A DNA stretch of 64,000 bases from Acinetobacter phage Acj61, in sequence record GU911519.1. One strand, 5' to 3'. A program made the translations under genes and the position numbers. Of the stretch, positions 47,521 through 64,000 are shown one piece after another (position 1 is the stretch's first letter; each line of letters starts with the position of its first letter). The notes beneath the pieces were generated by a model, which worked only from the letters and a program-made list of their open reading frames with translations, ran no database searches and was not told the origin of the DNA.

Positions 47521-48588
47521 TCAGAATTGATTGATGTCCTTTAACAATTTTGACATGCCTGATTTCACGAAGTAACCATACATTTTTCCACGAGGCGCAG
47601 GCTTGTAGTTTTTGTACGTTTCGAGAATTGCATCAACCATATCCTGACGAATGTAATCAAAGTCAATCAAGACTCGATTCTGTTTGAAACGAATGAACTG
47701 AGCATCAGCAATGAACTTACCGAGTTTTTCATTGTCGTTGATAAATGGTTCAAAATCTTCAGATTTCAGGCCTTGTAACTTGATGAGTTTGAGAGCTTCA
47801 GTCACACCGTGTTTCTTATGTCCAACTTTCTTCATAACTTCTGCATGAATAGTTTCATACACTTGCTCGTCAGTTTTGCCGACCATTGCTTCGATATAAC
47901 TTGTCGATGTCGGAGGAGTACGTTCAACATCGACTTCATAATTCAACCAGAAATCACCACGAACTTTAATCGCTGCAACACAGTCTTTTCGGTCGCCTTT
48001 AAGAATTTTGACCATACAATCCATTTCTGGAGACTTAGTCTTAACTTTGACGAATTTTTTCTGCATCGGTGAATATTGATCTACATCTTGTAACTTGTGA
48101 AGTTGCGTGAAGTCACCATCTGATGAAATGATACGAACTTTGAAATTACCAGTTGTCGTTAGGTATTTTGCTAAAACTGCAATACAGTCATCGGCCTCAG
48201 CATGATTGACATCTAAGACAATGTATGGCATGTAGTCTTTCAACTCTTGAATTGTGGTCGATAGACCTTCGAAATAACCATCCCAATCGAAAGTTTCTGC
48301 TGACTCTTCACGAGCGATAGCACGATTTCGTTTGTAATAATCTTGTTCTTGGCGTCGCCAATACCCGTAACGGGCGTTATCAACACAGATCACTACTTTG
48401 TTGAAGCCTTCATTTTTGAATTTGAATGCATTGTGCTTTAAGGTACTCAAAATCATATGTCGTACTTCATGAACTGTGAATTTCATTCCAGGTTCGTATG
48501 TTTGCATCACTGTCGCTAATGCGATCTGTGATAAATCGACAAGAAGAACGCCTTCTTTGTCATCGAATAAATGATCTAAATTCATCAT
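47521..48588 (-). CDS. rnh: RNase H / 5'-3' exonuclease (FEN-1 family)
   Basis: 355 aa. Conserved SQIALATV and ISSDGDFTQLHK blocks. It carries a ~50-aa insertion in the C-terminal third relative to T4 (305 aa). Confidence 0.9.
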   Translation of the reverse strand: MMNLDHLFDDKEGVLLVDLSQIALATVMQTYEPGMKFTVHEVRHMILSTLKHNAFKFKNEGFNKVVICVDNARYGYWRRQEQDYYKRNRAIAREESAETFDWDGYFEGLSTTIQELKDYMPYIVLDVNHAEADDCIAVLAKYLTTTGNFKVRIISSDGDFTQLHKLQDVDQYSPMQKKFVKVKTKSPEMDCMVKILKGDRKDCVAAIKVRGDFWLNYEVDVERTPPTSTSYIEAMVGKTDEQVYETIHAEVMKKVGHKKHGVTEALKLIKLQGLKSEDFEPFINDNEKLGKFIADAQFIRFKQNRVLIDFDYIRQDMVDAILETYKNYKPAPRGKMYGYFVKSGMSKLLKDINQF

Positions 48589-48599
48589 GAACTCCGTTC

Positions 48600-48650
48600 G
48601 TTAATGTTGGTACCATTATATTATACTACGCATTAAGCAATAAATAAATA
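48600..48650 (-). promoter_or_regulatory. Candidate middle promoter upstream of rnh (MotA box TTGCTTAAT, -10 TATAATATAAT)
   Basis: Minus strand: TATTGCTTAATGCGTAGTATAATATAATGGTACC. Confidence 0.4.
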
Positions 48651-48862
48651 CAAGATAATCGAATCTTTTGTGCACAGCACAAACTGCGCAGCAGACAGTC
48701 TATCTGACCGAACAGATAAATTAGAGCGGATGAAGCAGCTGAAGCTATTATAACATATCAAAAATATTAAGCCCTAGCTTTGTCGGTTTGATCGATCAAA
48801 TTTTAATCACACACAGATACGATCACATTTAATAAATAGTTCATATACTAAAAGGAACTCAC

Positions 48863-51800
48863 ATGTCTGAATTAATCAAAACCAAATTCCGTGCATCATA
48901 TGGTCTCGATGCAGCAGGTGAGAAAGTTGTAAACGTTGCATTGGCTGATCGTACAGTGATGACCGATGGCGTTAACGTTGCATATCTCATCCAAGAAAAT
49001 ACTCTTCAAAAGTATGACCCAACACGTTCATACCCAGAAGGATTTGCTGTCATCTACCAAAACCGTACATGGACAGCAGTACGTGATACGCCTAACCCAG
49101 CTGGCCCATTCGATGAATTGTACTGGAAAGCTCTTCGTAGTGACCCAAAATGGATTCCAATCAATGCAGGTGTTCGTGCTTTAGAAGTAGGTAACTACAT
49201 CGCAGTCGACACCGCTCCAGGCAACGATGTTGAACTAACACTCCCATCCAATGCACAAACAGGCGATACCATTGTTGTCAAAGATATTGGTGGTCGTACA
49301 GGTTATGCTTCAGTAATCATCAAAGCTGGTCAACAATCGATTATCGATCGTGGTAAGCAACTTCAACAAGCACAAATGACAGTTCCTTACTCAGAATATG
49401 TGTTTGTCTTCGTAAATCGTTTATGGCACTTATACAACGGCTCAGAAGCTGATGGTGTCAAATATGTCACTACAGCAGGTTTAGGTGAACTCCAAGCATC
49501 AGACGTAGTTGTTCGTCAATATGATCGCTTGCAGCCAATCAAAGTGCGTTTCCCTAAGTATGCTAATTCTGGTGACATTATCTATTTCATGGGTATGAAT
49601 AACATCAATGCTTTAGAACCATACTACCACTTAGAACTTGAAACTGCTGATGCTAACTCAAGTATCTTTGAACCGGGTGTGAAATCTCGAGTTATCTATC
49701 GTTCATTGAGTGGTTACTTCGTATTCGATTCTTCAACCAAAACTTGGATTCTATTTGACAGCGACACAACAGATCGTCTTCGTACCGTTTCAGGCGACAC
49801 AAACTTGTTCCCGAACGAGACTGTTTCTGTAGTAGGCACAAATAACACAGACCCATCTTCATTGACTTTGACTCTTCCAAAGAATGTTGATGCTGGTGCT
49901 CAGATCACAGTTGCATTGAATTATATGCGTCGTGGTCAAACTGTAAACATTGCTACACTTGCTCCTGACATGATCTTGACAAGTAAAGAATTGATGCAGT
50001 TCCCTAAACGTTCAAAATATCCGCCAGAAGGCAACTGGGTCAACACAAATAAATTGACTTTCAACGGTGCTGCTGATTATCCACCAATCATCACATTCGC
50101 TTATATCCCTATGGGACCAGTAGGTGCTCCACCAGTTCTTGGTCAATGGATGGTTGTAGAAAACGTTCCACAGTTAGAACGTGTTGACCCATCAACTGAT
50201 GCTACTCGTGCTCGTTTAGGTGTTATCGCATTAGCGACTCAAGACCAAGCAAACTTGAATCATGAAGACATCACTGATGCATCTCGTGAAATTGCTATCA
50301 CACCAGAAACTTTAGCGAATCGTACAGCGAATAAAACTCGTCGCGGTATTGCTCGAATTTCAACTGATGCAGAGAATCAATATCCAACTAATGACTCACG
50401 TTATTTAGACGATGTTATTGTAACTCCAAAAATGTTGAATAACAAGCAAGCTACTGAAATCATGCGTGGTATTGCTGAAATCGCTGATCAAGGTGAAGCG
50501 AATGGTTCAACTGATGATGCACGAATCATCACAGCTAAGAAATTAGATGCTCGACGTGCTAACCCTGACATGGCTGGTGTAGCTCCGGTTGTACGTGCAG
50601 GCGGTGCACCTGTAACAGGCACAGGTAAGACTCGTGATGATAAAGGTACATTGATTTATGATTTTGATGACTACTCAAATATCGTAACTCCAAAAACTCT
50701 TCGTGAATACATTGCTACCACATTATCTCTTGGTTCTGTGTACATTGCTACAAATGCCGAAGTTATCGCTGGAACAGCTACAGATGCTAAGCATCCTATC
50801 GTTGTTACACCTGCTGATTTGCATTCAAAAACTGCTACAGAAGCTCGAATTGGTTTCTCTGAAATTGCTACACAAGATGAAACGAATGCTGGTACCGATG
50901 ACTTCCGATTCATCACTCCAAGGAAACTTGCTGGACGTGGTTCATCAGAAACAATGACAGGCGTCGTTCGAATTGCTACACAAGGTGAATTCGATGCAGG
51001 TGTTCTTGACAACGTATTCAGTTCTCCATTGAAAGTTAAGACTCATTTTAACTCAACTGCACGTACAACTGTTGATCAAACTTCTGGTCTTCGTGAATCT
51101 GGTACATTATGGGGACAATATTCTCTTAATATCCTTCAATCAACTGAAGCTCAACGTGGTTCATTACGAGTTGCTTCACAAGCATTGACTGATGCAGGTG
51201 TTGATGACCTGACCGCTGTGACTCCTAAAAAGTTACAAGCTAAGAAAGCGACAGAAGCTGTTGAAGGTATTGTACAAATCGCTGATAACGCTGTTACTGC
51301 AGCTGGTGCATCAAACAGCCGTGCTGTGAGTCCACAAAGTCTCAAATACGTGATGCAAGATCATATTGACTGGGAAGCTACTACAACTCGTCGTGGTACA
51401 GTTAAGATGACTGAAGGCGCATTGACTTGGTCAGGTAACGATACACAGGGTAACACAAAACCTGTCGATCAGTTCTTCAAGTCAGGTTATGCAATTTCAC
51501 CATTTGAATTCATCTCAACATTGTCTCATTACTTGCCTATCAAAGGTAAAGCATTTGATTCTGATTTGTTAGATGGAATTGACAGTACTCAATTCATTCG
51601 TCGTGATATTGATCAAGTTGTTGATGGAGCTTTGACTCTTAATAAGACATTGACTACTAAGAATGTAGTTGCTAGTGGTAACTCTACAGTTACAATAGGC
51701 ACAACTGGTTCTGGTGTATTAAATGACGATCAAGATAAATTGTTATTGACTCCGCCTACTCACACAGCAGGTCCTTGGAAATTTGCTATCAACGATGGCG

Positions 51801-52717
51801 CATTAAGTACTTTGAAAATCAAGTATGGTGCAACAGCAACTCCGGTTGAATTTGGTTCTGAAGGCGATACAAAATTCAATGGCAATGTAACCATTAGCAA
51901 AGCGTTAAATGTTGGAACTACATTAACTGTAACAAACAACATCAACACAGCTTCTGGGTTATATGCAATCAACAGCAAACCTGTTGTTCAAATCGCATCT
52001 AACGTATCAACGTTTGGCGACACATCCATTTCTACTTCTATTCGGAGCTCAGATGCTAATGCTATAACTGCGGTCGATGGAACTGGTGGATATGTTATTG
52101 TAACATCAAAGAATATGCAGACTCAATTGAATCCACTTTACGTTCGACGTGATGGGTCAACAATGAGTGGTCGTTTGACAAGTACAGCACCTTCTGTATT
52201 TGCTATCCCGCAAACTTCTGCTGCTATTCGTGATCCGCTGGATGCCTCAAACTTTGGTACATGGACTACTGAGATCACAACAGACACACTCTACAAGCAA
52301 TTACCGGGGTATGTCGTTCCAGTTCCAGACTTGAACAATGATACTGGTGAGCCAACAGGCTTCATCAAAGAGTACAAAGAATTTGCAGGTCCTGGTACTC
52401 TGTCTCAATTCGGTTCAAGCGCTTCAAATGGTTCCGGTACATATCAAATGTGGGCTCCACGTCCAACAGTTACGACTGATAACCACCAAGCTCAGACATT
52501 CTACATGCGTTCTTGGAACACAGTTAAAGGTCAATTTGATGGATGGGGACGAGTGTATACTTCGAACAACCCACCAACAGCAAATGAAATTGGTGCTATG
52601 TCTGATAATGGTTCAATCTTCTCTTCATTGAAGATTCGTGATTGGATTCAAATCGGTAATGTACGCATCTATGCTGACCCATTATCTCGTTCAGTTAAAT
52701 TTGACTGGATTGATTAA
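48863..52717 (+). CDS. 34: Long tail fibre proximal subunit gp34
   Basis: 1284 aa against 1289 aa in T4. It is the first gene of the 34-35-36-37 block after rnh, as in T4. Confidence 0.9.
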   Translation: MSELIKTKFRASYGLDAAGEKVVNVALADRTVMTDGVNVAYLIQENTLQKYDPTRSYPEGFAVIYQNRTWTAVRDTPNPAGPFDELYWKALRSDPKWIPINAGVRALEVGNYIAVDTAPGNDVELTLPSNAQTGDTIVVKDIGGRTGYASVIIKAGQQSIIDRGKQLQQAQMTVPYSEYVFVFVNRLWHLYNGSEADGVKYVTTAGLGELQASDVVVRQYDRLQPIKVRFPKYANSGDIIYFMGMNNINALEPYYHLELETADANSSIFEPGVKSRVIYRSLSGYFVFDSSTKTWILFDSDTTDRLRTVSGDTNLFPNETVSVVGTNNTDPSSLTLTLPKNVDAGAQITVALNYMRRGQTVNIATLAPDMILTSKELMQFPKRSKYPPEGNWVNTNKLTFNGAADYPPIITFAYIPMGPVGAPPVLGQWMVVENVPQLERVDPSTDATRARLGVIALATQDQANLNHEDITDASREIAITPETLANRTANKTRRGIARISTDAENQYPTNDSRYLDDVIVTPKMLNNKQATEIMRGIAEIADQGEANGSTDDARIITAKKLDARRANPDMAGVAPVVRAGGAPVTGTGKTRDDKGTLIYDFDDYSNIVTPKTLREYIATTLSLGSVYIATNAEVIAGTATDAKHPIVVTPADLHSKTATEARIGFSEIATQDETNAGTDDFRFITPRKLAGRGSSETMTGVVRIATQGEFDAGVLDNVFSSPLKVKTHFNSTARTTVDQTSGLRESGTLWGQYSLNILQSTEAQRGSLRVASQALTDAGVDDLTAVTPKKLQAKKATEAVEGIVQIADNAVTAAGASNSRAVSPQSLKYVMQDHIDWEATTTRRGTVKMTEGALTWSGNDTQGNTKPVDQFFKSGYAISPFEFISTLSHYLPIKGKAFDSDLLDGIDSTQFIRRDIDQVVDGALTLNKTLTTKNVVASGNSTVTIGTTGSGVLNDDQDKLLLTPPTHTAGPWKFAINDGALSTLKIKYGATATPVEFGSEGDTKFNGNVTISKALNVGTTLTVTNNINTASGLYAINSKPVVQIASNVSTFGDTSISTSIRSSDANAITAVDGTGGYVIVTSKNMQTQLNPLYVRRDGSTMSGRLTSTAPSVFAIPQTSAAIRDPLDASNFGTWTTEITTDTLYKQLPGYVVPVPDLNNDTGEPTGFIKEYKEFAGPGTLSQFGSSASNGSGTYQMWAPRPTVTTDNHQAQTFYMRSWNTVKGQFDGWGRVYTSNNPPTANEIGAMSDNGSIFSSLKIRDWIQIGNVRIYADPLSRSVKFDWID

Positions 52718-52727
52718 GGAGTAATCA

Positions 52728-53879
52728 ATGGCTGAAACACTAATGATGAACGTTGATAAAGATCTTATCAGCGTTCGCATGGTGTCAGAATCAAATTCTG
52801 TCGCCTATAAAATGAACATTGGAGTGCCTTCTTCAGGAAATCCTAAGAATGCATATTTGAAAATCAATGACAAAGAATTGCACAGTTCACCTGGTTCTGT
52901 TACATCATCAACAGGCTTGAACATTCGAACATTCAATACTCCCGATAAATGGAATGAAGTTAAAAATTTCACATTGAGTTCTAATGACGCTTCGACAATC
53001 AATACAGGTTTTATTGACTATATGAATAGCGTTACTGATAAACTTGTTGTGATTTATTCAGGAACAGCACTTCGATCTAGCGCTCGAATCGATGATTGGT
53101 TTGCTAGTGTTAGTTCAAAGAACTGGCCTGGTGCTGATCGATGTAATCGATTTAGTTTTACGTACATCGGATTGTACTCACCTTCTAAACGAAAAATTAT
53201 TGCCGAAGCTTACAAAGGCTACCATGATTTATTGCCAAACGATTCATTCAATACTCTCGAAGTTGTGTATGATTCATTAGATGACATTGGTGCTGTTGGA
53301 TTTGCTAAAAGTGCAGTGTATGATTCTAAAGAGTACGTGACGACATCAGAATATGAATTCGTTCGATATCCTACTGATGCTGGTCTTGTAGCTCCACTTG
53401 CGGATTATGGACTTCGTCCTAACTCGCTTGTTATGTTGTCAGGTGAATTATTTCAAAGTGCTGAACTTGTTGCAGCAGGACTTGTTACACGTCTGAATGT
53501 TCGATGGTATCGTGGTACTACTTTACGAGATTCATTTTCCATCTCGCCTCCTGTTGATGTCAAAGAGACTTGGTGGAAAATGCCAGACACGTTCTTGAAT
53601 ATCCCAGCTGACGCAGATGGATTCACTATCGTTGCAGCTCGATATCCTCGAAATGATGCATTAAATGCATTAGCTGGTATCAAGAACATTGCACTTACAG
53701 AAGTTGGTCGTAAAGATGAGAAATCTACCCCAGCATCGATTGGCGTTAATGGTATCAAAACCAACAATCTCGTTGAAGGTACAAATGCTCCTATGTTATT
53801 ACAACTTGTTGACCCAGAAACATTCGCAGTCAATAATGTCCCTGTGGTAGCACTACGAGAACTTGAACTAGAGTACTAG
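52728..53879 (+). CDS. 35: Long tail fibre hinge (knee) gp35
   Basis: 383 aa against 372 aa in T4. It is followed by a terminator hairpin at 53877-53892. Confidence 0.8.
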   Translation: MAETLMMNVDKDLISVRMVSESNSVAYKMNIGVPSSGNPKNAYLKINDKELHSSPGSVTSSTGLNIRTFNTPDKWNEVKNFTLSSNDASTINTGFIDYMNSVTDKLVVIYSGTALRSSARIDDWFASVSSKNWPGADRCNRFSFTYIGLYSPSKRKIIAEAYKGYHDLLPNDSFNTLEVVYDSLDDIGAVGFAKSAVYDSKEYVTTSEYEFVRYPTDAGLVAPLADYGLRPNSLVMLSGELFQSAELVAAGLVTRLNVRWYRGTTLRDSFSISPPVDVKETWWKMPDTFLNIPADADGFTIVAARYPRNDALNALAGIKNIALTEVGRKDEKSTPASIGVNGIKTNNLVEGTNAPMLLQLVDPETFAVNNVPVVALRELELEY

Positions 53880-53898
53880 GGACTTCGGTCCCTTTGTG
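53877..53898 (+). terminator. Terminator after gene 35
   Basis: AGGGACTTCGGTCCCT plus TTGTGG. Confidence 0.55.
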
Positions 53899-53932
53899 GT
53901 ATGCATAAATAAAAAATATAAGAGGATAAATT

Positions 53933-54631
53933 ATGGCTGAGTTAAAAACAGGCACAACGATTGGTGGTACACTCGTTTGGACCCAGGGAAATTTCCCATT
54001 GTATCCTACAGGGAATACACTTCTTTATAAGAGTTACATGATCTATTCTGAGTTCAACAAACCTCAGGCTGTAGACAATGACTTTGTATCAAAGGCTAAT
54101 GGCGGTACATATGGCGCAGCTCTGAATGCTAAATCACTAGGCATTACGAACACTGTTGGCAATGGGCAAGGTCTTAGCTTACATAACGGCGCTACTGATG
54201 GCGAACCAAACAATGGTATCCATTTTAGTAAGACCGCAGGACCTGCTGGTGGTAAGCACTCGTACGACAATATTACTTCGGATTGGGCTACGTATTTCAA
54301 GCATGATGCTGCATATCCATGGAATTTCAAAGTCGGCAGTAATGTCGTGGCTTATGTTTCTGGTAATGGCACAATTGTTGGGTCTCAAATGGTATCAATG
54401 CTCGGCGCTATCAACCCAGAACACCTTACACGAAAAGATTATGTTGACTCATTAATAAATACTACTACAAACAACGCTAACTCACGAGTTCTTAAAGCTG
54501 GTGATACAATGACAGGTACTCTGGTAACACCAGCAGTCGAGCTCAAAGCCGAAGCAGCAAATCCACTTCATGCAGCTCGTTTGAGCCAAGTCATTGTTAA
54601 AGGCACAGTACTAGATTACGGCGAATTTTAA
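53933..54631 (+). CDS. 36: Long tail fibre distal connector gp36
   Basis: 232 aa against 221 aa in T4, in syntenic position. Confidence 0.8.
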   Translation: MAELKTGTTIGGTLVWTQGNFPLYPTGNTLLYKSYMIYSEFNKPQAVDNDFVSKANGGTYGAALNAKSLGITNTVGNGQGLSLHNGATDGEPNNGIHFSKTAGPAGGKHSYDNITSDWATYFKHDAAYPWNFKVGSNVVAYVSGNGTIVGSQMVSMLGAINPEHLTRKDYVDSLINTTTNNANSRVLKAGDTMTGTLVTPAVELKAEAANPLHAARLSQVIVKGTVLDYGEF

Positions 54632-54640
54632 GGAATAATT

Positions 54641-57600
54641 ATGGCTTTAGACCCAAACATCGGAAGAATTAAGTTTCTTCGTACAAAGACTATCGGTCGC
54701 AAACCGACTACAAATGACATCCAAGAAGGCGAATTAGCTCTTAACCTTACTGATCGCACAATTTTTTCTCGTAGCGGCGATAATATTGTCGATCTTGGGT
54801 TTGGACGTGGCGGTAAAATTGAAGGTTCTATTACTGCTACTGGTGATATAACTTCGAATAATGCTAACTTCACTCGTGTGTATTCGACTAATTACTATTC
54901 ACCAAACAATTTCAAATTCTACACACCAAATAATGGTGCGCAGAATATTGTTGCAGGCGGCATAGGTGTCATGGGTGAGTATGCTAACGAAGGCAAGATT
55001 CCGGGTAACGGCATCTACTCACAAGGACAAATCAAAAGTGATTCGTCTGTAACTGCTCCTTCATTTGTTGGCGAATTGACAGGCAACTCTGCAACTACAT
55101 CAAAATTGAAAAATGCTGTTCGAATCAATAGTGTTCTTTTTGATGGTACTACAAACATCACAACTCCGGGTTATATCAACGTGATTGCTGATGACAATCT
55201 CACTATTCGTCCATCGCAATTGACTCCAGGCTCGTTAGGTGTTTATTTTGCTTCTATTGCTGGTCTAAATGGCGTAGCTGATAGTAATTTTGCAGACGTT
55301 TTAGCGATCAACACATATAAAGACAATACAGGCGGCCTGTTGTCAGGTTTAGCATTCCCGAAAACAGGTCTACAAAACCCTATCCATTATCGCACAGATT
55401 ATGGTTCAGCTACATGGGGCACAGGACGTCGTTTAGCATATCTCGATGATGACTCAACTGGTAACTCAGCAACAGCGTCTCGTTTGAATAAAACTACACG
55501 AATCGCGACAGTTCAAGCGGTGACTTGGTATCGTTTAGGTAAAGTCACAATTCCACAAAACGGGCGTACTCTTGCTATTCGAATGTATGGCGGTGTCGGA
55601 TACAATGGCTTGTCAAATCAATCCGCAGCAGCAACAGTCATTTTCAAAACTGGTAATGCTAACCCTGTTAACGCTGGCGTCGCTATGGACGTTCTCGACG
55701 GTACTTCAATTCCAGGACAAGTTGGGTTGCTTAAACTCGATGATAGCAACTATGAAATCTTTGTTCAATTTGGCGGATATTCAACATTCAACTGTGTAGT
55801 TGAAGAAGAAGAAGGTACAACGTGGACTTGGCAGTATGCTTCATATGCGACACTTCCTGCTGGCTTCCAAGCAGGTACAGTACGTGTTTTAGCACAAACT
55901 ACAAGTAACGTTTCATCTGCTACTCGCCTTCAGACTCCACGCACAATCAACGGTGTTAGCTTTAACGGTACTTCTGATATTACTATTGCGGATAATACTA
56001 AATTACCGTTAACTGGTGGTACTTTAACTGGCGGTTTAACTGCACCTAATCTTACGGTTACTGGTAGTACAAAATCTACTACGATTAATGCTAGTGGAAT
56101 GGGTAATTATTCCCCATCAGAGCAGGGCGCATACCTTTCATGGAATAGAAATAATGGATCGGGTAAAACTGACTTTATTAATAATAGAGGTGGTGGTCCA
56201 GGCGGTTTTGATTGGTGGAATGGAAACGAAAGTAGTTACACCCAGGTAATGACTCTAGACCAAAGCGGAGTATTATCAACTATAGGTGGTTTTAACGGTA
56301 ATGCTACTACTGCTACTAGTCTACAAACTGCAAGAACTATTAATGGCGTAGCATTTAACGGTACAGCAAATATCACTATTGCAGATTCCACAAAGTTACC
56401 AACGGCAGGCGGCACAGTTACAGGTGCATTGGCGGTTAATGGACTGCTGACGGCAAATGGTGGATTCAAAGGACATTATGTAGCAACTGACAACCGCGCT
56501 TTAGTGCCAAGTGCAACACCTAAAGGTGCGATTGGCGCCTATTTCACCTCGCAAGGTGGACTGACGGGCGCAGCCAATGCAGCCTATGGCGACCTGTTGA
56601 TGTTGAACTCCTACCATGACACATCAGGCGGCAATGCAAATGCTTTGTTCTTCTCCAAAGGTGGCAAGTCAATCTTTCACTACCAAGCATCGCAAGATGC
56701 AACAAGTTGGGGAGCCGCAAGTCAGCTTGCCTATGTGACCGACAATGTGGCTTCTGCAACCAAGTTAGCCACAGCCCGCACGATCAACGGTGTTAGCTTT
56801 GACGGTACATCCAATATTACTATTGCGGATAGTACTAAATTACCGTTAACTGGCGGCACAATTACAGGCAGTTTAAATGTAAGCGATACAATCACTATTA
56901 CAAATGTAGGTGATCAGGCAGGTGCATTTAAGAAACTTATTCAAGCTGATACTACTACGGATGGTGGATATCTTGCAGTAGGTAATAATGCTGCAGATAG
57001 AGGCTACGTTGAAATCGGCACTATTGATGATGCGGATGCAGAGATTTATGCTTCGCAGCGAACTAGTGCAAATGCTGTAATACGTAGAGCAAAATTATTA
57101 GATGGTGCTGGTAATACAAGCTTTCCGGGCAACCTATCTGCTAACTCTTTGGGTGTAAACAACACCTCAAACTCAAGTGGTTTAGGTGTTTCGCTTTACG
57201 ATGGTGCGACTGGTGGAATGCCTAGTTACGGTCTTGCGTTCTCAGGTACAGCAACCTTTGGTACGCATGGGGGTGTAGTTGGAGATTGGGCAACATACTT
57301 CACTATGAGCGGCGCGACAAACCGAGGGTGGATTTTCAAATCAGGTAATACAGCCGGAGGAAATGTTGCGTCTATATCAGCATCTGGCGTGATTACTGCA
57401 CCTCAATTTGTGGGCAATTTATCGGGAAATGCTGATACTGCGTCTAACGCTGTTGGTGTAGGTCAAAGCTGGTATGTTTATACTGCACCTACACGTGAGC
57501 AAAATACCTTATACACTAATACAACAGGTAGAACCATCACGGTTTCTATTTCTTTGGTTGCTATGGGTAACTATACAATGACTGTTGATATCAACGGCAC

Positions 57601-57745
57601 AGCTATGCAGGAACATGCGGTTAACACAAGCTCGAATAACGGCGGAATATTATATTTCCAAGTTCCACCAGGTCAAACGTACAAAGTTTATTTCACTAGA
57701 GCATCTAATGCAACACCTTTTCTGAAATGGGCAGAACTTAGATAA
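54641..57745 (+). CDS. 37: Long tail fibre distal subunit gp37 (receptor-binding)
   Basis: 1034 aa against 1026 aa in T4. It contains repeated RTINGVSFNGT..ITIAD.TKLPLTGGT modules. The distal half has shifted codon usage. Confidence 0.9.
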   Translation: MALDPNIGRIKFLRTKTIGRKPTTNDIQEGELALNLTDRTIFSRSGDNIVDLGFGRGGKIEGSITATGDITSNNANFTRVYSTNYYSPNNFKFYTPNNGAQNIVAGGIGVMGEYANEGKIPGNGIYSQGQIKSDSSVTAPSFVGELTGNSATTSKLKNAVRINSVLFDGTTNITTPGYINVIADDNLTIRPSQLTPGSLGVYFASIAGLNGVADSNFADVLAINTYKDNTGGLLSGLAFPKTGLQNPIHYRTDYGSATWGTGRRLAYLDDDSTGNSATASRLNKTTRIATVQAVTWYRLGKVTIPQNGRTLAIRMYGGVGYNGLSNQSAAATVIFKTGNANPVNAGVAMDVLDGTSIPGQVGLLKLDDSNYEIFVQFGGYSTFNCVVEEEEGTTWTWQYASYATLPAGFQAGTVRVLAQTTSNVSSATRLQTPRTINGVSFNGTSDITIADNTKLPLTGGTLTGGLTAPNLTVTGSTKSTTINASGMGNYSPSEQGAYLSWNRNNGSGKTDFINNRGGGPGGFDWWNGNESSYTQVMTLDQSGVLSTIGGFNGNATTATSLQTARTINGVAFNGTANITIADSTKLPTAGGTVTGALAVNGLLTANGGFKGHYVATDNRALVPSATPKGAIGAYFTSQGGLTGAANAAYGDLLMLNSYHDTSGGNANALFFSKGGKSIFHYQASQDATSWGAASQLAYVTDNVASATKLATARTINGVSFDGTSNITIADSTKLPLTGGTITGSLNVSDTITITNVGDQAGAFKKLIQADTTTDGGYLAVGNNAADRGYVEIGTIDDADAEIYASQRTSANAVIRRAKLLDGAGNTSFPGNLSANSLGVNNTSNSSGLGVSLYDGATGGMPSYGLAFSGTATFGTHGGVVGDWATYFTMSGATNRGWIFKSGNTAGGNVASISASGVITAPQFVGNLSGNADTASNAVGVGQSWYVYTAPTREQNTLYTNTTGRTITVSISLVAMGNYTMTVDINGTAMQEHAVNTSSNNGGILYFQVPPGQTYKVYFTRASNATPFLKWAELR

Positions 57746-57752
57746 ATGTGGT

Positions 57753-57800
57753 AATCGTGTATCATTCATTATAAATATTTTTTTTAAATGATACACGATT
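57753..57800 (+). promoter_or_regulatory. Late promoter TATAAATA (57770-57777) inside the 14-bp-arm inverted repeat AATCGTGTATCATT/AATGATACACGATT. A second TATAAATA lies at 57872-57879, upstream of t.
   Basis: Exact octamers. The hairpin arms are at 57753-57766 and 57787-57800. Confidence 0.5.
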
Positions 57801-57843
57801 AAAAATTAAAATGAATACTCAAGACAACAAACAACTAACACGA

Positions 57844-57870
57844 ACGGGGCTCAATTGAGTCCCGTTTTTC
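57844..57870 (+). terminator. Terminator after gene 37
   Basis: ACGGGGCTCAATTGAGTCCCGT plus TTTTTC. Confidence 0.7.
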
Positions 57871-57944
57871 GTATAAATATTATCATAAGTCATAAGACTG
57901 TAACTACCAAGTTAATCCTATCAACGCTACAAAAGTATATAACG

Positions 57945-58625
57945 ATGAGCACTGATAATAACCAAACACCAGAACAGAAAAACACAGGGATTCCAGTCTT
58001 CGACTTTATCTTCGGACTCCTTGATCGTATTTTCAAAGACAACGCTACTGGTAAAATTTTAGCGTCACGTGTCGTCGTTCTAATTGTTTTATTCGCAATG
58101 GGTATCATTTGGACCAAAGGTGACCAATATTTGGCACTGTATAAAGAGTCGAGATACGAGACCTACGCAGCTATAATGCAAAAAGATAAAGACGCACGAT
58201 TCGAAACTGTAGCATTAGAACAACTACAAATTGTTCACGTTTCAAGCGGAGCAGACTTTTCAGCTGTGTACTCTTTCCGCCCAAAGAACTTTAACTATTT
58301 TGTAGATTTGATCGCGTATGAAGGACAACTACCCGCATCTGTTGACCCGAAGAACCTAGGCGGGTTCCCTATTGATAAGACTTCAAACGAATATAGTAAA
58401 CATTTATCTGGCTCTTCTTTCAGTAGTGAAAATGAGTTCAAATATTTGCCGACTACTGATCATGAAGTTGGAGTGAAGTACATGTACTCATGCCCGTATT
58501 TCAACATGGACAATGTCTATTCAGGAACAGTCGCAATGTACTGGTTTTCGAAGCCAGTACATTCTGAAGAAAAATTAAGTGCGATCTGTGGTCAAGCGGT
58601 GAGGGCGTTAGGAAGAGCTCGTTAA
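57945..58625 (+). CDS. t: Holin T
   Basis: About 226 aa from MSTDNNQ. It is near-identical to T4 T in its conserved blocks (LDRIFKDNATGKILASRV, FETVALEQLQIVHVSSGADFSAVYSFRPKN, YMYSCPYFN). It has a single TM segment. Confidence 0.9.
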   Translation: MSTDNNQTPEQKNTGIPVFDFIFGLLDRIFKDNATGKILASRVVVLIVLFAMGIIWTKGDQYLALYKESRYETYAAIMQKDKDARFETVALEQLQIVHVSSGADFSAVYSFRPKNFNYFVDLIAYEGQLPASVDPKNLGGFPIDKTSNEYSKHLSGSSFSSENEFKYLPTTDHEVGVKYMYSCPYFNMDNVYSGTVAMYWFSKPVHSEEKLSAICGQAVRALGRAR

Positions 58626-58900
58626 GCAGTTTTGACAGTATTGGTGTACATGGCCAATTTGCGATAGATTGGTTCATGTCCCATGTTGAATTCTTCGATC
58701 AATTGTTTCTTCTGAGAAGTAGTGATTTCTTGAGTCAACATGTAAAGATTTGCTGAAGTAACTTTCTTGCCTTGGATTGTGATCTCAAGTTCGTTGAGAT
58801 ATGCAATGAACAAGTTGTGGTTTTCAAGAATGTCATCAAAACCGAATTTGATTAAGATTGAAGCAACGGCAATGATTTCAGCTAAAGTATTGAATAACAT
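58622..58900 (-). CDS. asiA: Anti-sigma70 factor AsiA
   Basis: 92 aa against 90 aa in T4. VASILIKF, IAYLNE and AMYTN blocks are conserved. Confidence 0.9.
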   Translation of the reverse strand: MLFNTLAEIIAVASILIKFGFDDILENHNLFIAYLNELEITIQGKKVTSANLYMLTQEITTSQKKQLIEEFNMGHEPIYRKLAMYTNTVKTA

Positions 58901-58930
58901 AATAAGGATTCCTTTAAAATTGAGTTAGAG

Positions 58931-59572
58931 TTAAGCGGTTTCGATTAATGCATCGATGATGTTGACAATGTTGTCTTCAGTACATTCGATATCGAAATAA
59001 GTTTGAGCAGGTGTTTGTCGATATTTCATGCCAATTGATGCAAGTTTCTCGACAACTTTATCAGATGGTTTTCTACCAACTACTCGTACTTCGCCTTTGT
59101 TTTTGATTTCGAGTGCTCCAACTGAAGAGATTCGTTTAGCAAATAAGATTAAAAAATTGCTTCGATCTACGACAGTGTTCTTCACTTCGATTTTGTCTGT
59201 TAAATATTCGAGTGCAAAATCTTTGAACGCTTCCATACATTCATGAATTTCTCGTTTCTTACGAGTACCTTTAGCTTCAAGAAGTTCTGGTCGTTCTGAT
59301 TCAACCCAAGCTTTTGCTGCAGCTTCGATTGCATCATCACCTTCAGGCGTTGTCAAGAATTTGTCTACAGAGATTTCAACCAGGTTTAACGCTGAGTTCT
59401 GCATCTTAGTTAGAGATGATATAACATCAATAACATCAGATTCGATGATATCTGCAATCATCTGAGGAGTCTGAAATGACTGTTTGTACAACTCTTTCAG
59501 AATTTTGTAATCCAATTCGACAAGTTGACCTTTATCTCCAAGGATTTGATTTAAGTAATCAATCTGCTTCAT
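58931..59572 (-). CDS. motA: Middle-transcription activator MotA (probable)
   Basis: 213 aa against 211 aa in T4. It lies between asiA and gene 52, as in T4. Direct sequence resemblance is only weak. Confidence 0.55.
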   Translation of the reverse strand: MKQIDYLNQILGDKGQLVELDYKILKELYKQSFQTPQMIADIIESDVIDVISSLTKMQNSALNLVEISVDKFLTTPEGDDAIEAAAKAWVESERPELLEAKGTRKKREIHECMEAFKDFALEYLTDKIEVKNTVVDRSNFLILFAKRISSVGALEIKNKGEVRVVGRKPSDKVVEKLASIGMKYRQTPAQTYFDIECTEDNIVNIIDALIETA

Positions 59573-59594
59573 AATAATTTATCCATATTTGATT

Positions 59595-59634
59595 TGATAA
59601 GACTATAATAACACAAGTCAAAGCGTTTGTAAAC
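59595..59634 (-). promoter_or_regulatory. Early promoter upstream of motA
   Basis: Minus strand: GTTTAC-N17-TGTTATTATAGTCTTATCA. Confidence 0.5.
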
Positions 59635-59647
59635 CGTTACATACCAC

Positions 59648-59672
59648 AAAAAGGGACCAATTGGTCCCTTTT
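59648..59672. terminator. Bidirectional terminator after gene 52
   Basis: AAAAGGGACCAATTGGTCCCTTTTT. Confidence 0.7.
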
Positions 59673-59675
59673 TAA

Positions 59676-61073
59676 TCATTTAGATAACTCATCTAAATCT
59701 TTTTCATATTCGATCTGAACTGTGGTCTCTTTCCAATAATCGAGTTCAGTTTTTGCGGCGTGTGCGGCTTCACGAAGACGAACAACTTCATCATCAGTCA
59801 AATGATAGAGATTCATTGCCAATAGTTGATCTTCAAAGCCTTGGAAAACCGAGATTTTCGAAAGTTCTTCTTTCAACTCAGATTTTTTCTTGCCTTTGAT
59901 GACGGTCTCACCATTGTTGACTGTTTTGATGAACATCGCCTTGGCAATAGCCAATTTGAATTGACGTTCGGTTTTGTTGATCATGAATTCGATACGTCCT
60001 TTGACATATTTCTTTCGTACTTCAACAAAGTACTTGATCAAATCTGATGCATTTTCAAATTTGTCGTTGAGTTTACCATTTTCATCGATGACTACGATGT
60101 ATTGAGGTACCTTTTCAGTAAGTTTGAAATCTCGCATGATTTTTTCATGCATCAAACCTTCATCTTCTGGCAACTTATAGTCCTTACGGAATTTGACCTT
60201 GAATCCGAAGCCATGCTTAGAACAGTCATCATCATATGTGATGAAGCCTTTGTCTTCTAATGGATCGAGAACTTTTTCAACGTACTTAGCACGATCGAAT
60301 GAGTATGGAATTTCAGAGATGTACATCTGAGTTTTTGAAGTGAATTTGTATACACCTTGTAACTCATATTTGCCATCTTCAGTTTTGACAATGTTACCGT
60401 TGAACTGCGGGAATGCAACTTCTGGTTCCTTGTCTAATTTGCCTTGAAGAGCCAATCGAGTACACTCAATCACAGATTCAAGACTGTGTGGCAAGATTGA
60501 AGTCGAATAACCTGTTGCAATACCACGTACACCGTTCAATAGAACTGTTGGGATGACTGGCAAATAATGTTTTGGCGGCAAGTGCTCTTCGTCTTCGTGT
60601 TGTGGAGCGATTTCGATGTCTTTGAACACTTTTCGGAAGTTGTCAGAGATTCGACAGAAAATATAACGAGATGCTGCAGCTTCTTGTACTAATCGAGAAC
60701 CAAAGTTACCTTGTCCATCTAAGAATGGGAAGTTGTTGTTCCATGTGTTTGCCATCAAAGCACCAGCTTCTTGAGCCGAGTTTTCACCATGGTGATAACC
60801 AGCGTCAGCAACACCACCAGCAACAGATGCTAATTTGTGGAATTTTTGATGATTGCCTTTAGCCATTTCGAGTGCACGATAAACCATGAAACGTTGAACT
60901 GGCTTGAAGCCATCCATTAAGTTCGGAATTGCTCGGTTTTCGACAGTATAAATTGCATAAGCCAATGCTTCGTTATTGATAATGCTATCTAATTCGCGAT
61001 CTACACTATTCATTTGAACTCCTGATTTGATAGTGGAAAAATTTACTGCAACCGAAGTTGCAGTTTGAATCAT
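59676..61073 (-). CDS. 52: DNA topoisomerase II medium subunit gp52 (GyrA-like)
   Basis: 465 aa against 442 aa in T4. It has the GyrA N-terminal signature (AIPNLMDGFKPVQRFMVY). Confidence 0.9.
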   Translation of the reverse strand: MIQTATSVAVNFSTIKSGVQMNSVDRELDSIINNEALAYAIYTVENRAIPNLMDGFKPVQRFMVYRALEMAKGNHQKFHKLASVAGGVADAGYHHGENSAQEAGALMANTWNNNFPFLDGQGNFGSRLVQEAAASRYIFCRISDNFRKVFKDIEIAPQHEDEEHLPPKHYLPVIPTVLLNGVRGIATGYSTSILPHSLESVIECTRLALQGKLDKEPEVAFPQFNGNIVKTEDGKYELQGVYKFTSKTQMYISEIPYSFDRAKYVEKVLDPLEDKGFITYDDDCSKHGFGFKVKFRKDYKLPEDEGLMHEKIMRDFKLTEKVPQYIVVIDENGKLNDKFENASDLIKYFVEVRKKYVKGRIEFMINKTERQFKLAIAKAMFIKTVNNGETVIKGKKKSELKEELSKISVFQGFEDQLLAMNLYHLTDDEVVRLREAAHAAKTELDYWKETTVQIEYEKDLDELSK

Positions 61074-61245
61074 TATAAACTAATTTCCGAACAGCTATTT
61101 GACTAGCTTAAAGCATACTATGAAGAATATGATGTTCGTTAAAATGAATGGGACAACAAAATTCAGGTTATTGAAGTCCATTGCTGGCGTTGCCTTGTGA
61201 ATTGACGCATACAAAACCATTAGAACCATTGCCAAAATTTGATTA

Positions 61246-61428
61246 CTAGTCATTGTGACCTCCCATTAAAAAGTATACTGCACCAGACACAATCACTGTC
61301 CAGTTGAAATAAATCATGTTGTCTGTCAGATCACCTACGTATAGGTCATGTGCCGATAAAATCATTGCGATAATTACGATAAACACCATCATATTAGTAC
61401 TTCTGTGCGTAGAATTTGAAGTTGTCAC
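61246..61428 (-). CDS. Small membrane protein (ndd.1-like position)
   Basis: 60 aa with two hydrophobic helices. It overlaps the ndd 3' end. Confidence 0.3.
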   Translation of the reverse strand: MTTSNSTHRSTNMMVFIVIIAMILSAHDLYVGDLTDNMIYFNWTVIVSGAVYFLMGGHND

Positions 61429-61867
61429 TCAACATACGATTGAGTTCTTCAAGATTCTGGAAACGATCGTTATGGCTGCGAGTAAGCAATAATGCAAACT
61501 TACCTTTCATGAATCCGTTCGTTAATGGCTTCATATGTTCTAAAGGCAAGAAGAACACATCGAATGGTACATGAGCATTCATGATAACTTCACCTACAGA
61601 AGAACGTTGCAAACGTAACTGAGATGCAGTGTTGTTGAAGCCTTGTTTCGAACGTTGGCGACCTACATAGAATCGTGCGTAAACAGTTTCTTTACGTGGG
61701 TGTACCATGAAGTAGAAGCCTGGACGAGACAAGTCAGCAGTCGGTTTTAATCCGAGAGCAAAGTTCTTGCCAGGTTCACGAAGCTTGCCAGTTGATGTGA
61801 ACTGTGCAACTCGTTGAGCTCCTACGACACGTAGGTCTTTAACACGCATAATTGATTTAACTTTCAT
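61394..61867 (-). CDS. ndd: Nucleoid disruption protein Ndd
   Basis: 157 aa against 151 aa in T4. Conserved SRPGFYF, ARFYVGRQRSKQGF, MKPLTNGF and EELNRMLSDNFKF blocks. Confidence 0.85.
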   Translation of the reverse strand: MKVKSIMRVKDLRVVGAQRVAQFTSTGKLREPGKNFALGLKPTADLSRPGFYFMVHPRKETVYARFYVGRQRSKQGFNNTASQLRLQRSSVGEVIMNAHVPFDVFFLPLEHMKPLTNGFMKGKFALLLTRSHNDRFQNLEELNRMLSDNFKFYAQKY

Positions 61868-61930
61868 TTCATATTCCTCTTAAACATTACAATTGAATTA
61901 ATTTCTCTAACAATATTGAATATTGTTTTT

Positions 61931-61970
61931 GATAGGACCATTATATCACATCTTTTTGATAAAGTAAACT
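61931..61970 (-). promoter_or_regulatory. Early promoter upstream of ndd
   Basis: Minus strand: GTTTAC-N17-TGATATAATGGTCCTATCA. Confidence 0.65.
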
Positions 61971-61980
61971 ATCTTGTGAA

Positions 61981-62613
61981 TTATTTTTGAAAATAAAAAT
62001 AATTCATCAAATCAGACACTTTTTCGGAGATGAATCCGAGTTTCAAGAAGTAGCCATCGCCGTACTGAGACTCATGAGTTACACGAGGATGTCTTAAAGC
62101 ATTTGGGTCTAACATGACTTTAGGAATCATTATCCATCCACCAGAGGTTATGTCTGGTTTAGTTTCGATAACAATCATGACATCAGCAATACCAAGATCA
62201 AGGAACGGGCGAACGTGCAAGCCTTTGGTACCTTTGAATGGGCCGACGTGCCCGGTGTTGACAGATATGTAATTTGATGCCGACTGATGGGTTTTCACTT
62301 CAATCCGCATACCGCAGTACTTGATGTTTGATAGTACATCATACGCATAGGAAAGTGGATCAGATGTATCCTCAGAGCCATGATTGCACCAACCTTCCAT
62401 CCATTGAGCGACTAATTGTTCTGCAAGTTGAGCGATAACGCATCGTTCTACAACAACTTCTTTCTGTTGGAACGGATCTTGTGACAATGAATAGCGAACA
62501 GTATCGATAACCTTTTGACGACTCTCGGGAGTCAAGTCGGTTGAACGCATGCGAGTTTTAGGCAATTGAGAAAGGCGTAGCCATCCAGGATTATTTTTCA
62601 TTTCAAACTCCAA
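61981..62613 (-). CDS. denB: Putative endonuclease IV (DenB) by position
   Basis: 210 aa ORF between ndd and rIIB, where T4 denB lies. I could not verify it by sequence. Confidence 0.45.
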   Translation of the reverse strand: MEFEMKNNPGWLRLSQLPKTRMRSTDLTPESRQKVIDTVRYSLSQDPFQQKEVVVERCVIAQLAEQLVAQWMEGWCNHGSEDTSDPLSYAYDVLSNIKYCGMRIEVKTHQSASNYISVNTGHVGPFKGTKGLHVRPFLDLGIADVMIVIETKPDITSGGWIMIPKVMLDPNALRHPRVTHESQYGDGYFLKLGFISEKVSDLMNYFYFQK

Positions 62614-62636
62614 AGGGACTCATATGAGTCCCATAT
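62612..62636. terminator. Palindromic terminator (CATATG centre) after rIIB
   Basis: AAAGGGACTCATATGAGTCCC, then an AT-rich tail. Confidence 0.6.
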
Positions 62637-62648
62637 TCGTGATTAGGA

Positions 62649-63938
62649 TTAGAATTGATCAGTTACGTCTTCGACTACAACATAACCACATGTACGCATT
62701 TTAGCATTTTTGTAATCACGTGGAATTGCGACTACATCTTGAGGATGGACCTTACACTTAACGACTCGGGCTCCATTTGACCATGAACCATAATGAGACA
62801 AATATGATTTAGAGCAAACATGTAGACCACGAGAACATGTTGTAGTATCATCTTCGTCTACCTGATTTCGAGGCATACGTGGAGGATTCTTACCATTTGG
62901 CGTGTTGTCATAATCACCCGTGTAGATGTCTTTGTAGTCTGCTGCAACTTTCTTCCAAGCATAGAAGTAGCCATCTTTTGTGATTTCGATGTCGTTAGCT
63001 TCTAAGAAGTCAAACAAACGATTCACAGCTTTTTCACTTGGATTGAGCATCAAGTTTTCAAGGAATGGCAAGTAGAATTCAAAGTCTTCGCCGTCATTCA
63101 TTGACTTGATGATTCGTTGTGCGATACCATTTTTGAGATTGATGTTCTTGTAGAACAATGAACCGTTTTCGATGGTAACGTTGCCTTTTACATAACGCTT
63201 GACAGCACGTTCAACAACAATCAATTCAACAGCCTTTTCGAATTGACCCACACTTAATGCGTTCAGTGCAGATGCGAAGTTTGGATGCTCGTTTGATGCG
63301 TTCCAGACTTCACGTCCACGAGTAATCGAGATGAATTTATTGCTTGCATTCCAAACGAATTCTGGTGCCTTTTTGAATGTGCGATTCAACTTGACCATTA
63401 CGGCAAAGTATGGAGCTTCATGGCTCGGGATTGCTTGAGTCTTTTTAGCAGTAGGATGTTTTTCGAAGTCAAACTTGCAATCTTCATAGCAATCTTCGCT
63501 TGCGCCATCATGTACTTTGACTTCGCCGACTTTAACAATTTTGACAATACCGACATCAGTTTCACCAAACTCTAAATCACTAAGCGGATAGTCGGTGTCA
63601 GAACCGTCATTGCGTTCCCATAGAGCACCAAGAATCAAGATGCCATCGTTAGGGTCACCAGTGATTTCTAACTTATCACAAACGAAGCATTCACGAACTG
63701 ATAATGTTGGCACAACACCTGTAACACCTTTAGGAGCTCCACCAAAATCAGTATTGAGTTTATATTTGCCATCAGTGTCTTCAACAAATAACGTCATGAA
63801 TCGAGTATTGTTTCGTTCGACTCGACGAATAGTATCAGGTGACACTTCATATTCTTTTGCAAGATCAACTTGTTTCATGCCTGATGCACGTCGAATACAA
63901 ATGTCTGTGATTGCCTTAGCATCTAATTTAGTAGCCAT
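62649..63938 (-). CDS. rIIB: rIIB membrane-associated protein
   Basis: 429 aa. Its C-terminal ~250 aa are colinear with T4 rIIB (WNASNKFISIT, NFEFYLPFLENL, DDTTTCSRGLHVCSKSYL, KMRTCGYVVVEDVTDQF). It has an extra ~100-aa insertion. Confidence 0.9.
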   Translation of the reverse strand: MATKLDAKAITDICIRRASGMKQVDLAKEYEVSPDTIRRVERNNTRFMTLFVEDTDGKYKLNTDFGGAPKGVTGVVPTLSVRECFVCDKLEITGDPNDGILILGALWERNDGSDTDYPLSDLEFGETDVGIVKIVKVGEVKVHDGASEDCYEDCKFDFEKHPTAKKTQAIPSHEAPYFAVMVKLNRTFKKAPEFVWNASNKFISITRGREVWNASNEHPNFASALNALSVGQFEKAVELIVVERAVKRYVKGNVTIENGSLFYKNINLKNGIAQRIIKSMNDGEDFEFYLPFLENLMLNPSEKAVNRLFDFLEANDIEITKDGYFYAWKKVAADYKDIYTGDYDNTPNGKNPPRMPRNQVDEDDTTTCSRGLHVCSKSYLSHYGSWSNGARVVKCKVHPQDVVAIPRDYKNAKMRTCGYVVVEDVTDQF

Positions 63939-64000
63939 ATTAGTCTTCCTTTAGTTAAGAGATGAATAAATTATAACACATTTTTGAGAATGAATCCTAG

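Follow-up and report, generated by a model that had tools for sequence, protein, structure and literature searches.

The distal half of gene 37, which encodes the distal subunit of the long tail fibre of Acinetobacter phage Acj61, is a mosaic of modules whose similarities to other phages are incongruent with those of the surrounding genome. To judge from sequence comparison, the gene very probably took shape through several independent rounds of homologous recombination with other phages. We analysed a 64,000-nucleotide (nt) stretch of the Acj61 genome (sequence record GU911519.1; hereafter, the window), in which gene 37 occupies positions 54641–57745 of the plus strand and specifies a protein of 1,034 amino acids (aa), gp37. 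A preliminary description of the window had ascribed the make-up of the gene to recombinational shuffling and horizontal acquisition, a proposal that is supported by the replacement of the distal half relative to a sister genome, by incongruent modules and by composition outliers.

Among the genomes compared, the closest to Acj61 is L003, a 163-kb metagenomic T4-like scaffold. The two are 97.8% identical over 48001–54112, 90.6% over 54419–55996 and 98.5% over 57817–64000, and DNA comparison found no match in L003 to Acj61 55997–57816. Their alignment runs together to …CACGCACAATCAACGGT (window 55954), and divergence begins at 55955, just past …ATCAACGGT; the switch from identity to non-homology falls inside the codons for RTING|V of the first copy of a repeated motif, motif 1. 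Past this breakpoint, L003 carries a Peptidase_S74-type distal half (in its fibre, P0003, the S74 domain spans aa 1040–1094, E = 2.5e-16), together with an extra 212-aa open reading frame (ORF).

In gp37, the repeated motif is ~42 aa long and reads …ATKLxTARTINGVxFxGTxxITIADxTKLPLTGGT…, with the fuller consensus (G)NAxTAxKLxTARTINGVxFDGxxNITIxDxTKLPLxGGTxTG. Three copies lie at aa 422–463, 553–594 and 701–742, encoded on the plus strand as motif m1 (SNVSSATRLQTPRTINGVSFNGTSDITIADNTKLPLTGGTLT; 55904–56029, with a DNA repeat core at 55940–56042), motif m2 (GNATTATSLQTARTINGVAFNGTANITIADSTKLPTAGGTVT; 56297–56422, DNA repeat 56333–56435) and motif m3 (DNVASATKLATARTINGVSFDGTSNITIADSTKLPLTGGTIT; 56741–56866, DNA repeat 56777–56879). 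A weaker copy begins at aa ~147 (degenerate motif m0, TGNSATTSKLKNAVRINSVLFDGTTNITTPGY…; 55079–55183, plus strand) and in self-comparison matches the m1, m2 and m3 regions, and a half-motif, VITAPQFVGNLSGNADTAS, is found at aa ~916–937. Between and beyond the motifs, also on the plus strand, lie module C (aa 464–552; 56030–56296), the GC-rich, knob-type module D (56423–56740), module E (aa 743 to ~834; 56867–57142), module F (aa ~835–915; 57143–57385) and, after the half-motif, a C-terminal tip that ends …KWAELR (57386–57742). The first and last DNA repeats had been called near-identical in the preliminary description; they are real, but at 86.4% identity over 103 nt (BLAST E = 5e-31) they are better termed similar. 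The more diverged third copy that it had reported was found at 56333–56435, at 62% identity ungapped and 74–76% by local alignment. Its two homologous modules of ~100 aa were likewise recovered, at aa 182–271 (55184–55453, the knob-type module A) and aa 614–702 (56480–56746, in the region of D), with 36.7% identity (E = 2e-18).

The modules resemble, each with its own set of partners, genes in phages with quite different backbones. About 110 fibres in a large protein database share parts of gp37, and the same motif flanks many unrelated modules across them; DNA was compared for eight. Module C matches phage 133 (82%, window 55934–56425), L005 (82%, 55931–56341), L006 (84%, 55943–56384), L007 (85%, 55940–56424) and L008 (86%, 55934–56384), and as protein it is 85% identical to prophage-type ‘MAINL…’ Acinetobacter fibres. 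L004 is 89% identical over 54825–56400, that is, from the proximal part of gene 37 to m2 and including C. Module E matches L004 (86%, 56771–57142), L005 (93%, 56780–57142), L007 and L008 (both 88%, 56771–57142), with 92% protein identity to P0010, and module F matches phage 133 (83%) and L006 (84%), in both cases over 57139–57389. Among the compared loci, module D is matched in L002 only (fibre P0031), at 83.3% DNA identity over 56336–56819 and, across D itself, 89% identity in protein; no closer relative of it came up when IMG/VR and GTDB genomes were scanned.

The backbones of the T4-like loci that supplied these matches are only 64–69% identical to Acj61, and two further backbones are unrelated to it. 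L007, which encodes an integrase and RecT, is a temperate element. L002 is a 107,555-bp contig (Logan SRR29999943) with lambda-like tail genes gpM/L/K/J, a Rep3 replicase and DnaB; its gpJ is nearest (42%) to the ~108-kb SSU5-type phage-plasmids of enterobacteria, so that L002 itself is probably a phage-plasmid, and a megablast of its tail region against phages gave no match. The order of modules differs as well. In phage 133, C and F are contiguous and D is absent, so that 56426–57138 is an insertion in Acj61; L004 has an unrelated module in place of D, and L007 has an E-type module ahead of a C-type module. Segment histories are therefore incongruent with that of the genome: the sister with 98% identical flanks lacks a homologous distal half, and modules are 82–93% identical in phages whose backbones are 64–69% identical or unrelated.

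Base composition was measured over the same segments. As a background we used 467 windows of 90 codons from the 58 other ORFs in the window, in which GC content at third codon positions (GC3) has a mean of 0.321, a standard deviation of 0.064 and a maximum of 0.500. In the segment 56531–56800, GC3 reaches 0.544 (z = 3.5), higher than in any of the 467 background windows, and the codon adaptation index (CAI) falls to 0.514, below the background minimum of 0.563; this segment, which represents module D, is the extreme for both measures across the whole 64 kb. The sliding GC3 and codon-adaptation analysis thus places the GC-rich block outside the entire background distribution. Module D as a whole (56423–56740) has a GC content of 0.513 and a GC3 of 0.462 (Fisher p = 0.003), compared with a genome GC3 of 0.32. 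The GGC, GCC, CTG and TCC codons that the preliminary description had remarked on in this block are all enriched there (GGC 6/16, GCC 5/19, CTG 4/10 and TCC 2/9). Module A, the paralogue of D in the same gene, has a native GC3 of 0.278, so fold and amino-acid content do not explain the signal from D. In L002, the genes have a GC3 of 0.454 ± 0.058 and the copy of module D has a GC content of 0.517 and a GC3 of 0.45. Since the GC3 of both the L002 copy and the L002 genome equals that of D in Acj61, the comparison suggests that module D entered the Acj61 lineage from a phage lineage of ~47% GC. Synonymous sites that lie out of range and match a candidate donor lineage were found for module D only.

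The distal half departs from the genome in other ways as well. Most windows between 55901 and 57610 are low in CAI (z from −1.2 to −3.9). AGA and AGG account for 8 of the 15 Arg codons in aa 434–1034, for 1 of 19 in the proximal part and for 6.1% in the other ORFs (binomial p = 8e-7), in keeping with the earlier observation of distal AGA use; both Arg codons of module C are AGA. GC3 is low in module C (0.26) and module E (0.196). Two further claims about the flanking blocks did not hold. Enrichment of GGA for Gly was not seen (GGA makes up 20% in the other ORFs), and the flanks, described as very AT-rich, have GC contents of 0.40–0.48, compared with 0.395 for the window; only GC3 is low, and only in C and E.

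Across the eight comparisons, the ends of all matches are confined to five sites: the three canonical motifs, the half-motif between F and the tip, and the junction of E with F. At the motifs, the breakpoints range over 55931–55955, 56336–56425 and 56771–56819. The first range, in m1, contains the left breakpoint of the distal replacement and the starts of the module-C matches in five other phages (55931–55943). At m2, matches end or start at 56336, 56341, 56384, 56400 and 56424/5, and at m3 the module-E matches start at 56771–56780 and the L002 match ends at 56819. Every module-E match ends at 57142, and here (57142/57143) E is joined to F without a motif (…TTTCCGGGC|AACCTATCT…), by a direct GGC|AAC joint; relatives carry the full motif at this site, whereas Acj61 does not. 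The half-motif between F and the tip resembles TVTAPTFSGALSGNAATATKL, the start of the motif in relatives. Motif DNA of Acj61 and motif DNA of other phages have exact runs of 28–74 nt in common, and 28–74 identical nt suffice for T4-type homologous recombination. Among the three intragenic copies, synonymous sites are saturated and the longest exact run is 21 nt; recent gene conversion between them was considered and is judged unlikely on account of that saturation. The idea that the repeats act as crossover points thus accords with the three motif copies, all of which hold junctions, and fails at E|F, where there is no motif; the coincidence of junctions and motifs is consistent with the idea and is not proof of it.

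The mosaicism reaches beyond the region originally singled out, into the proximal part of gene 37 and into gene 36. Two proximal patches of gene 37 diverge from L003: patch 1 (about aa 61–115; 54825–54974, plus strand), at 75% identity compared with 97–100% around it, and patch 2, in module A (55125–55349, plus strand), at 75–77%. The number of synonymous substitutions per site (dS) is 0.87 in patch 1 and 1.02 in the module A patch, compared with 0.02–0.10 in g34, g35, t and motA, and the ratio of non-synonymous to synonymous rates (dN/dS) in the two patches is 0.1–0.18 (~0.18 in patch 1). High dS combined with low dN/dS indicates that these patches are recombination tracts from diverged lineages, rather than products of positive selection. 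In gene 36, a patch that covers the central module (aa ~61–162; 54113–54418) has ~40% DNA identity to L003. In Acj61, this central module is paralogous to module F of gp37 (42% identity, E = 9e-12), and L003 gp36 has a different module type at this position.

As a protein, module F also matches tail-fibre segments of Shewanella phage Thanatos-1, at 77.5% identity, and of Pseudomonas phage PspYZU05, at 57%; several A. baumannii phages have it in gp34, the proximal subunit (55%). One cassette thus serves in different host genera and in different fibre subunits.

Several observations weigh against assembly by homologous recombination at the motifs. The best donor-like sequences are only 82–93% identical to the modules and none is the actual donor, and composition is the sole argument for the direction of transfer. 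Judged on GC3, the modules that lie off the genome are just D (p = 0.003) and E (0.20, p = 0.01), with C, F and the tip within its range. The intragenic motif copies are poor substrates for recombining with each other. Alignment ends must fall in conserved motifs, so that a crossover in a motif is not separable from a crossover nearby combined with conservation. Finally, E|F has only GGY|A microhomology and the right end of the replacement is intergenic, so not all joints are motif-mediated. The same two joints, the runs of at most 21 identical nt shared by the intragenic copies and the tendency of conserved motifs to trap alignment ends wherever a crossover happened would all suit a different account, in which exchange is real but the motifs are structural linkers: illegitimate or microhomology joints would form anywhere, and selection would keep those trimers that are joined at module borders. 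We regard this account as improbable, since the switch between Acj61 and L003 occurs within continuous identity and inside motif codons, and motif DNA shares runs of 28–74 identical nt with other phages. Moreover, experimental crosses of T-even phages put exchanges in or near conserved motifs (PMC3157838).

Accounts that dispense with outside input fare worse against these data. The three motif copies and the A/D pair could have arisen by tandem duplication within the gene followed by divergence. The presence of a repeated motif and of paralogues in one gene agrees with such an origin, and small tail-fibre domain duplication is known in T4 (Tétart 1996, cited in PMC3157838). The copies within the gene, however, are far more diverged from one another (62–86% in nucleotides with saturated dS; 37% in amino acids for A and D) than each is from its counterparts in other genomes, with D and L002 at 83% nucleotide and 89% amino-acid identity and motif DNA in runs of up to 74 identical nt with other genomes; composition, moreover, is foreign in D and not in A. 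Intragenic duplication is thus very unlikely to account for the gene; an ancient duplication may lie behind the motif family as such, yet it leaves the present arrangement unexplained. It is harder still to credit that the distal half is an old resident, passed down vertically and made odd by local rapid evolution through diversifying selection and a content rich in Gly, Ala and Thr. Fibre proteins do have a skewed amino-acid content, the CAI of the whole gene is moderately low (0.663), and the GC3 of C, F and the tip stays within the genome range. Yet the distal half is non-homologous in L003, whose two flanks are 98% identical; GC3 measures synonymous variation and is native in the paralogue A; the divergent patches combine high dS with low dN/dS; and the modules are 82–93% identical to genes in phages with 64–69% identical or unrelated backbones. 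Having weighed these accounts, we give vertical descent almost no credence.

Under the preferred reading of repeated recombination with other phages, gp37 would form a trimeric fibre organized like beads on a string, in which modules A, B, C, D, E, F and the tip, of 80–120 aa each, are separated by linkers of ~42 aa. We infer homologous recombination as the mechanism, as well as the direction of transfer and the order of events. The DNA that codes for the linkers may have given in-frame crossover sites for homologous exchange, which could take place during co-infection or on infection of lysogens, with occasional microhomology joints as well. Exchange partners would include other T4-like Acinetobacter phages, temperate Acinetobacter prophages and a higher-GC siphovirus of lambda-like or phage-plasmid type. 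Compared with L003, the whole stretch that begins within motif 1 (~55955) and stops just short of the gene t terminator and late promoter (~57817) would have been replaced. Module D would still show the composition of a donor lineage with ~47% GC, the AGA-rich modules C and E and the tip would bear another non-native codon signature, and selection on host range would act on the recombinant products.

The right end of the replaced cassette is closed by an intergenic stretch specific to Acj61 (57746–57825, plus strand), which has no match in L003 or L004 before ~57817–57828. Directly after the gene 37 stop codon it contains an imperfect 25-nt palindrome, I1 (57752–57776/57777–57801; 84% complementary), with a perfect 14-bp core, AATCGTGTATCATT / AATGATACACGATT, and a TATAAATA box at its centre. 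Farther on, at 57843–57879 (plus strand) and upstream of the holin gene t, lies a terminator-like hairpin, AACGGGGCTCAATTGAGTCCCGTT followed by T5 (palindrome I3), and then a TATAAATA box (57872–57879), which, going by the T4 consensus, we take to be a T4-type late promoter. A consensus terminator scan did not call the hairpin at 57843–57879. L003 and L004 carry this hairpin and the TATAAATA box unchanged; similarity to L003 resumes at this boundary, the right edge of the exchanged cassette.

The assignment of the gene to the gp37 family rests on several tests. The product is a 100% match to the ‘putative tail fibre protein’ of Acj61 (genome of 164,093 bp) and matches PHROG 20242 (tail fibre) over its full length. 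Its aa 6–75 match PHROG 19966 (E = 1e-22) and PHROG 1699 (E = 4e-20), both ‘long tail fiber protein distal subunit’, and aa 1–75 share 72–95% identity with many MALDPNIGRIKFLR… proteins from T4-like contigs, in agreement with the presence of the conserved N-terminal domain that is predicted to join gp36. In the ORF list, gene 37 follows g34 (48863–52717), g35 (52728–53879) and g36 (53933–54631), and the locus order rnh-34-35-36-37-t-asiA-motA is that annotated in Acinetobacter phage 133, the only phage matched when the locus was compared by megablast with INPHARED, a collection that does not include Acj61. The late-gene order 34-35-36-37 also occurs in L003 and L008, which places gp37 in its expected position.

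Gene 38, the adhesin/chaperone gene, is not found downstream of gene 37; holin t (57945–58625; PHROG 860, E = 1e-99) comes next, after only ~200 nt of intergenic DNA. An ORF at 57855–58625 was considered as a gene-38-like candidate and rejected, because it is the holin gene t, spuriously extended to an upstream TTG. Translation truly starts from the ATG at 57945; in the protein counted from there, similarity to the PHROG holin sets in at residue 15, and phage 133, too, has a conserved t. Phage 133 likewise lacks gene 38, which makes Acj61 a member of a gp38-less subtype and does not exclude it from the gp37 family. Pfam scans of whole gp37 and of its parts gave nothing above threshold, neither a T4-like C-terminal needle or His-box region nor the Peptidase_S74 C-terminal domain (PF13884), and a PDB sequence search with whole gp37 gave no relative at E < 0.06, only a chance-level match.

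The S74 fibres of L003 (P0003) and L004 (P0002) share the proximal half N-A-B-m1 with Acj61 at 77–99% identity per module. The S74 architecture appears to be the commoner one for that proximal half (P0003, P0004, P0012, P0017, P0019 and P0020). By contrast, Acj61 gp37 has neither the S74 domain nor the following 212-aa ORF, and its C-terminus is a ‘…WAELR’ β-sandwich tip. The 212-aa ORF stands after the S74-type gp37 in both sister contigs (L003 11399–12037; L004 3056–3694). The L003 copy was without a match in PHROG and Pfam scans, and the product may be an accessory or assembly factor for the S74 fibre type.

The tip is likely to be the receptor-binding head, because of its terminal position and the lack of gene 38. 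As to the receptor-binding segments named in the preliminary description, the label is plausible for the C-terminal tip, and no other module qualifies. A word-indexed search with the tip alone retrieved two weak relatives only, whereas an exhaustive search gave a domain family of 685 representative clusters, in which the domain is C-terminal in nearly all listed matches; relatives are at most 38–48% identical. The ‘…GxGQxW…TYTNTTGRPI…WAELR’ domain also occurs stand-alone, in proteins of 110–140 aa (P0113 and P0114), and at the C-terminus of proteins of very different lengths. An AlphaFold2 (AF2) monomer model of the tip, of moderate confidence (mean predicted local distance difference test score (pLDDT) 66.5), has seven β-strands, and Foldseek found no significant match to it in the PDB. 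In the corresponding model of m2-D-m3 (pLDDT 70.7), the core of D is a small β-rich domain with values of 83–91. Foldseek against the PDB again returned nothing significant; the top nominal matches of D, T4 gp34, R2 pyocin fibre and Mu fibre (all E > 0.1), may serve as a lead only. For the linker motif, the only solved chain with similarity is the C-terminal stalk of phage L Dec (PDB 6e3c; NAETADKLSTARTI…SFDGSANVTIE), which was retrieved with a profile of motif plus knob against the PDB (E = 0.0066); the match is weak and short. In contrast to gp37, Dec decorates the capsid, and its C-terminus folds as a trimeric β-helix.

The arrangement has close parallels among known phages. In T-even phages, tail-fibre and adhesin genes are known to recombine within their conserved motifs (Tétart 1996/1998, cited in PMC3157838), and tail-fibre mosaicism among T4 relatives is noted in PMC2993671, which lists Acj61. 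None of the papers that could be searched treats Acj61 gene 37 specifically, and a search for the motif string returned noise only. The T-even mosaics (PMC3157838) are alike in the g37 position in a T4-type genome, in the variable segments between short conserved motifs, in the formation of chimaeras by exchange in or near these motifs and in host-range change as the consequence. Unlike the T-even phages, Acj61 has a motif (…TARTINGVSFDG…KLPLTGGT…) that does not belong to the T-even His-box or glycine-rich set, and it lacks gene 38 and has holin t directly after gene 37. Its partners, moreover, include temperate and siphovirus-type elements, and a clear signature of donor composition survives.

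Closest in organization is phage 133 gp37 (HM114315), which has the same synteny, no gene 38, an N-terminal domain 68% identical over aa 1–72, modules C and F at 82–83% DNA identity and three copies of the same motif; it differs in having C and F contiguous, in the absence of A, B, D and E, and in another C-terminal tip. Tail-fibre segments have also reportedly been transferred horizontally among unrelated phages (P2 H, Mu S, P1 S, lambda stf/tfa and T4 g37). The likeness lies in homologous segments that occur across myoviruses and siphoviruses, and across virulent and temperate phages. By comparison, the Acj61 case concerns Acinetobacter phages and a different repeat family, and involves no invertible segment or tfa-type chaperone gene.

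A broader and rather doubtful conjecture is that the TARTINGVSFDG…KLPLTGGT linker serves as a ‘splice-site’ grammar for one pool of fibre cassettes, drawn on by virulent T4-like myoviruses, by temperate prophages and by SSU5-like phage-plasmids from Acinetobacter and neighbouring hosts, with the nucleotides of the linker selected as a recombination substrate beyond what the protein needs. If such a grammar existed, Acj61 would record a switch from an S74-chaperone-dependent tip with an accessory gene to a self-sufficient ‘…WAELR’ tip.

Acj61 gene 37 adds a well-documented case to the tail-fibre mosaicism already known (Tétart 1998); it reveals no new mechanism and leaves the current view of tail-fibre evolution unchanged. 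It does offer a coordinate-level and unusually clean example of cassette exchange in a host-recognition gene, with a breakpoint defined to a few codons by a 98% identical sister, and with one cassette, module D, that still bears the composition of a different type of phage. Because the tip is the likely receptor-binding head, module swaps of this kind would be host-range changes, and the module map, with its linkers as natural in-frame exchange sites, may be useful for phage therapy and host-range engineering in Acinetobacter.

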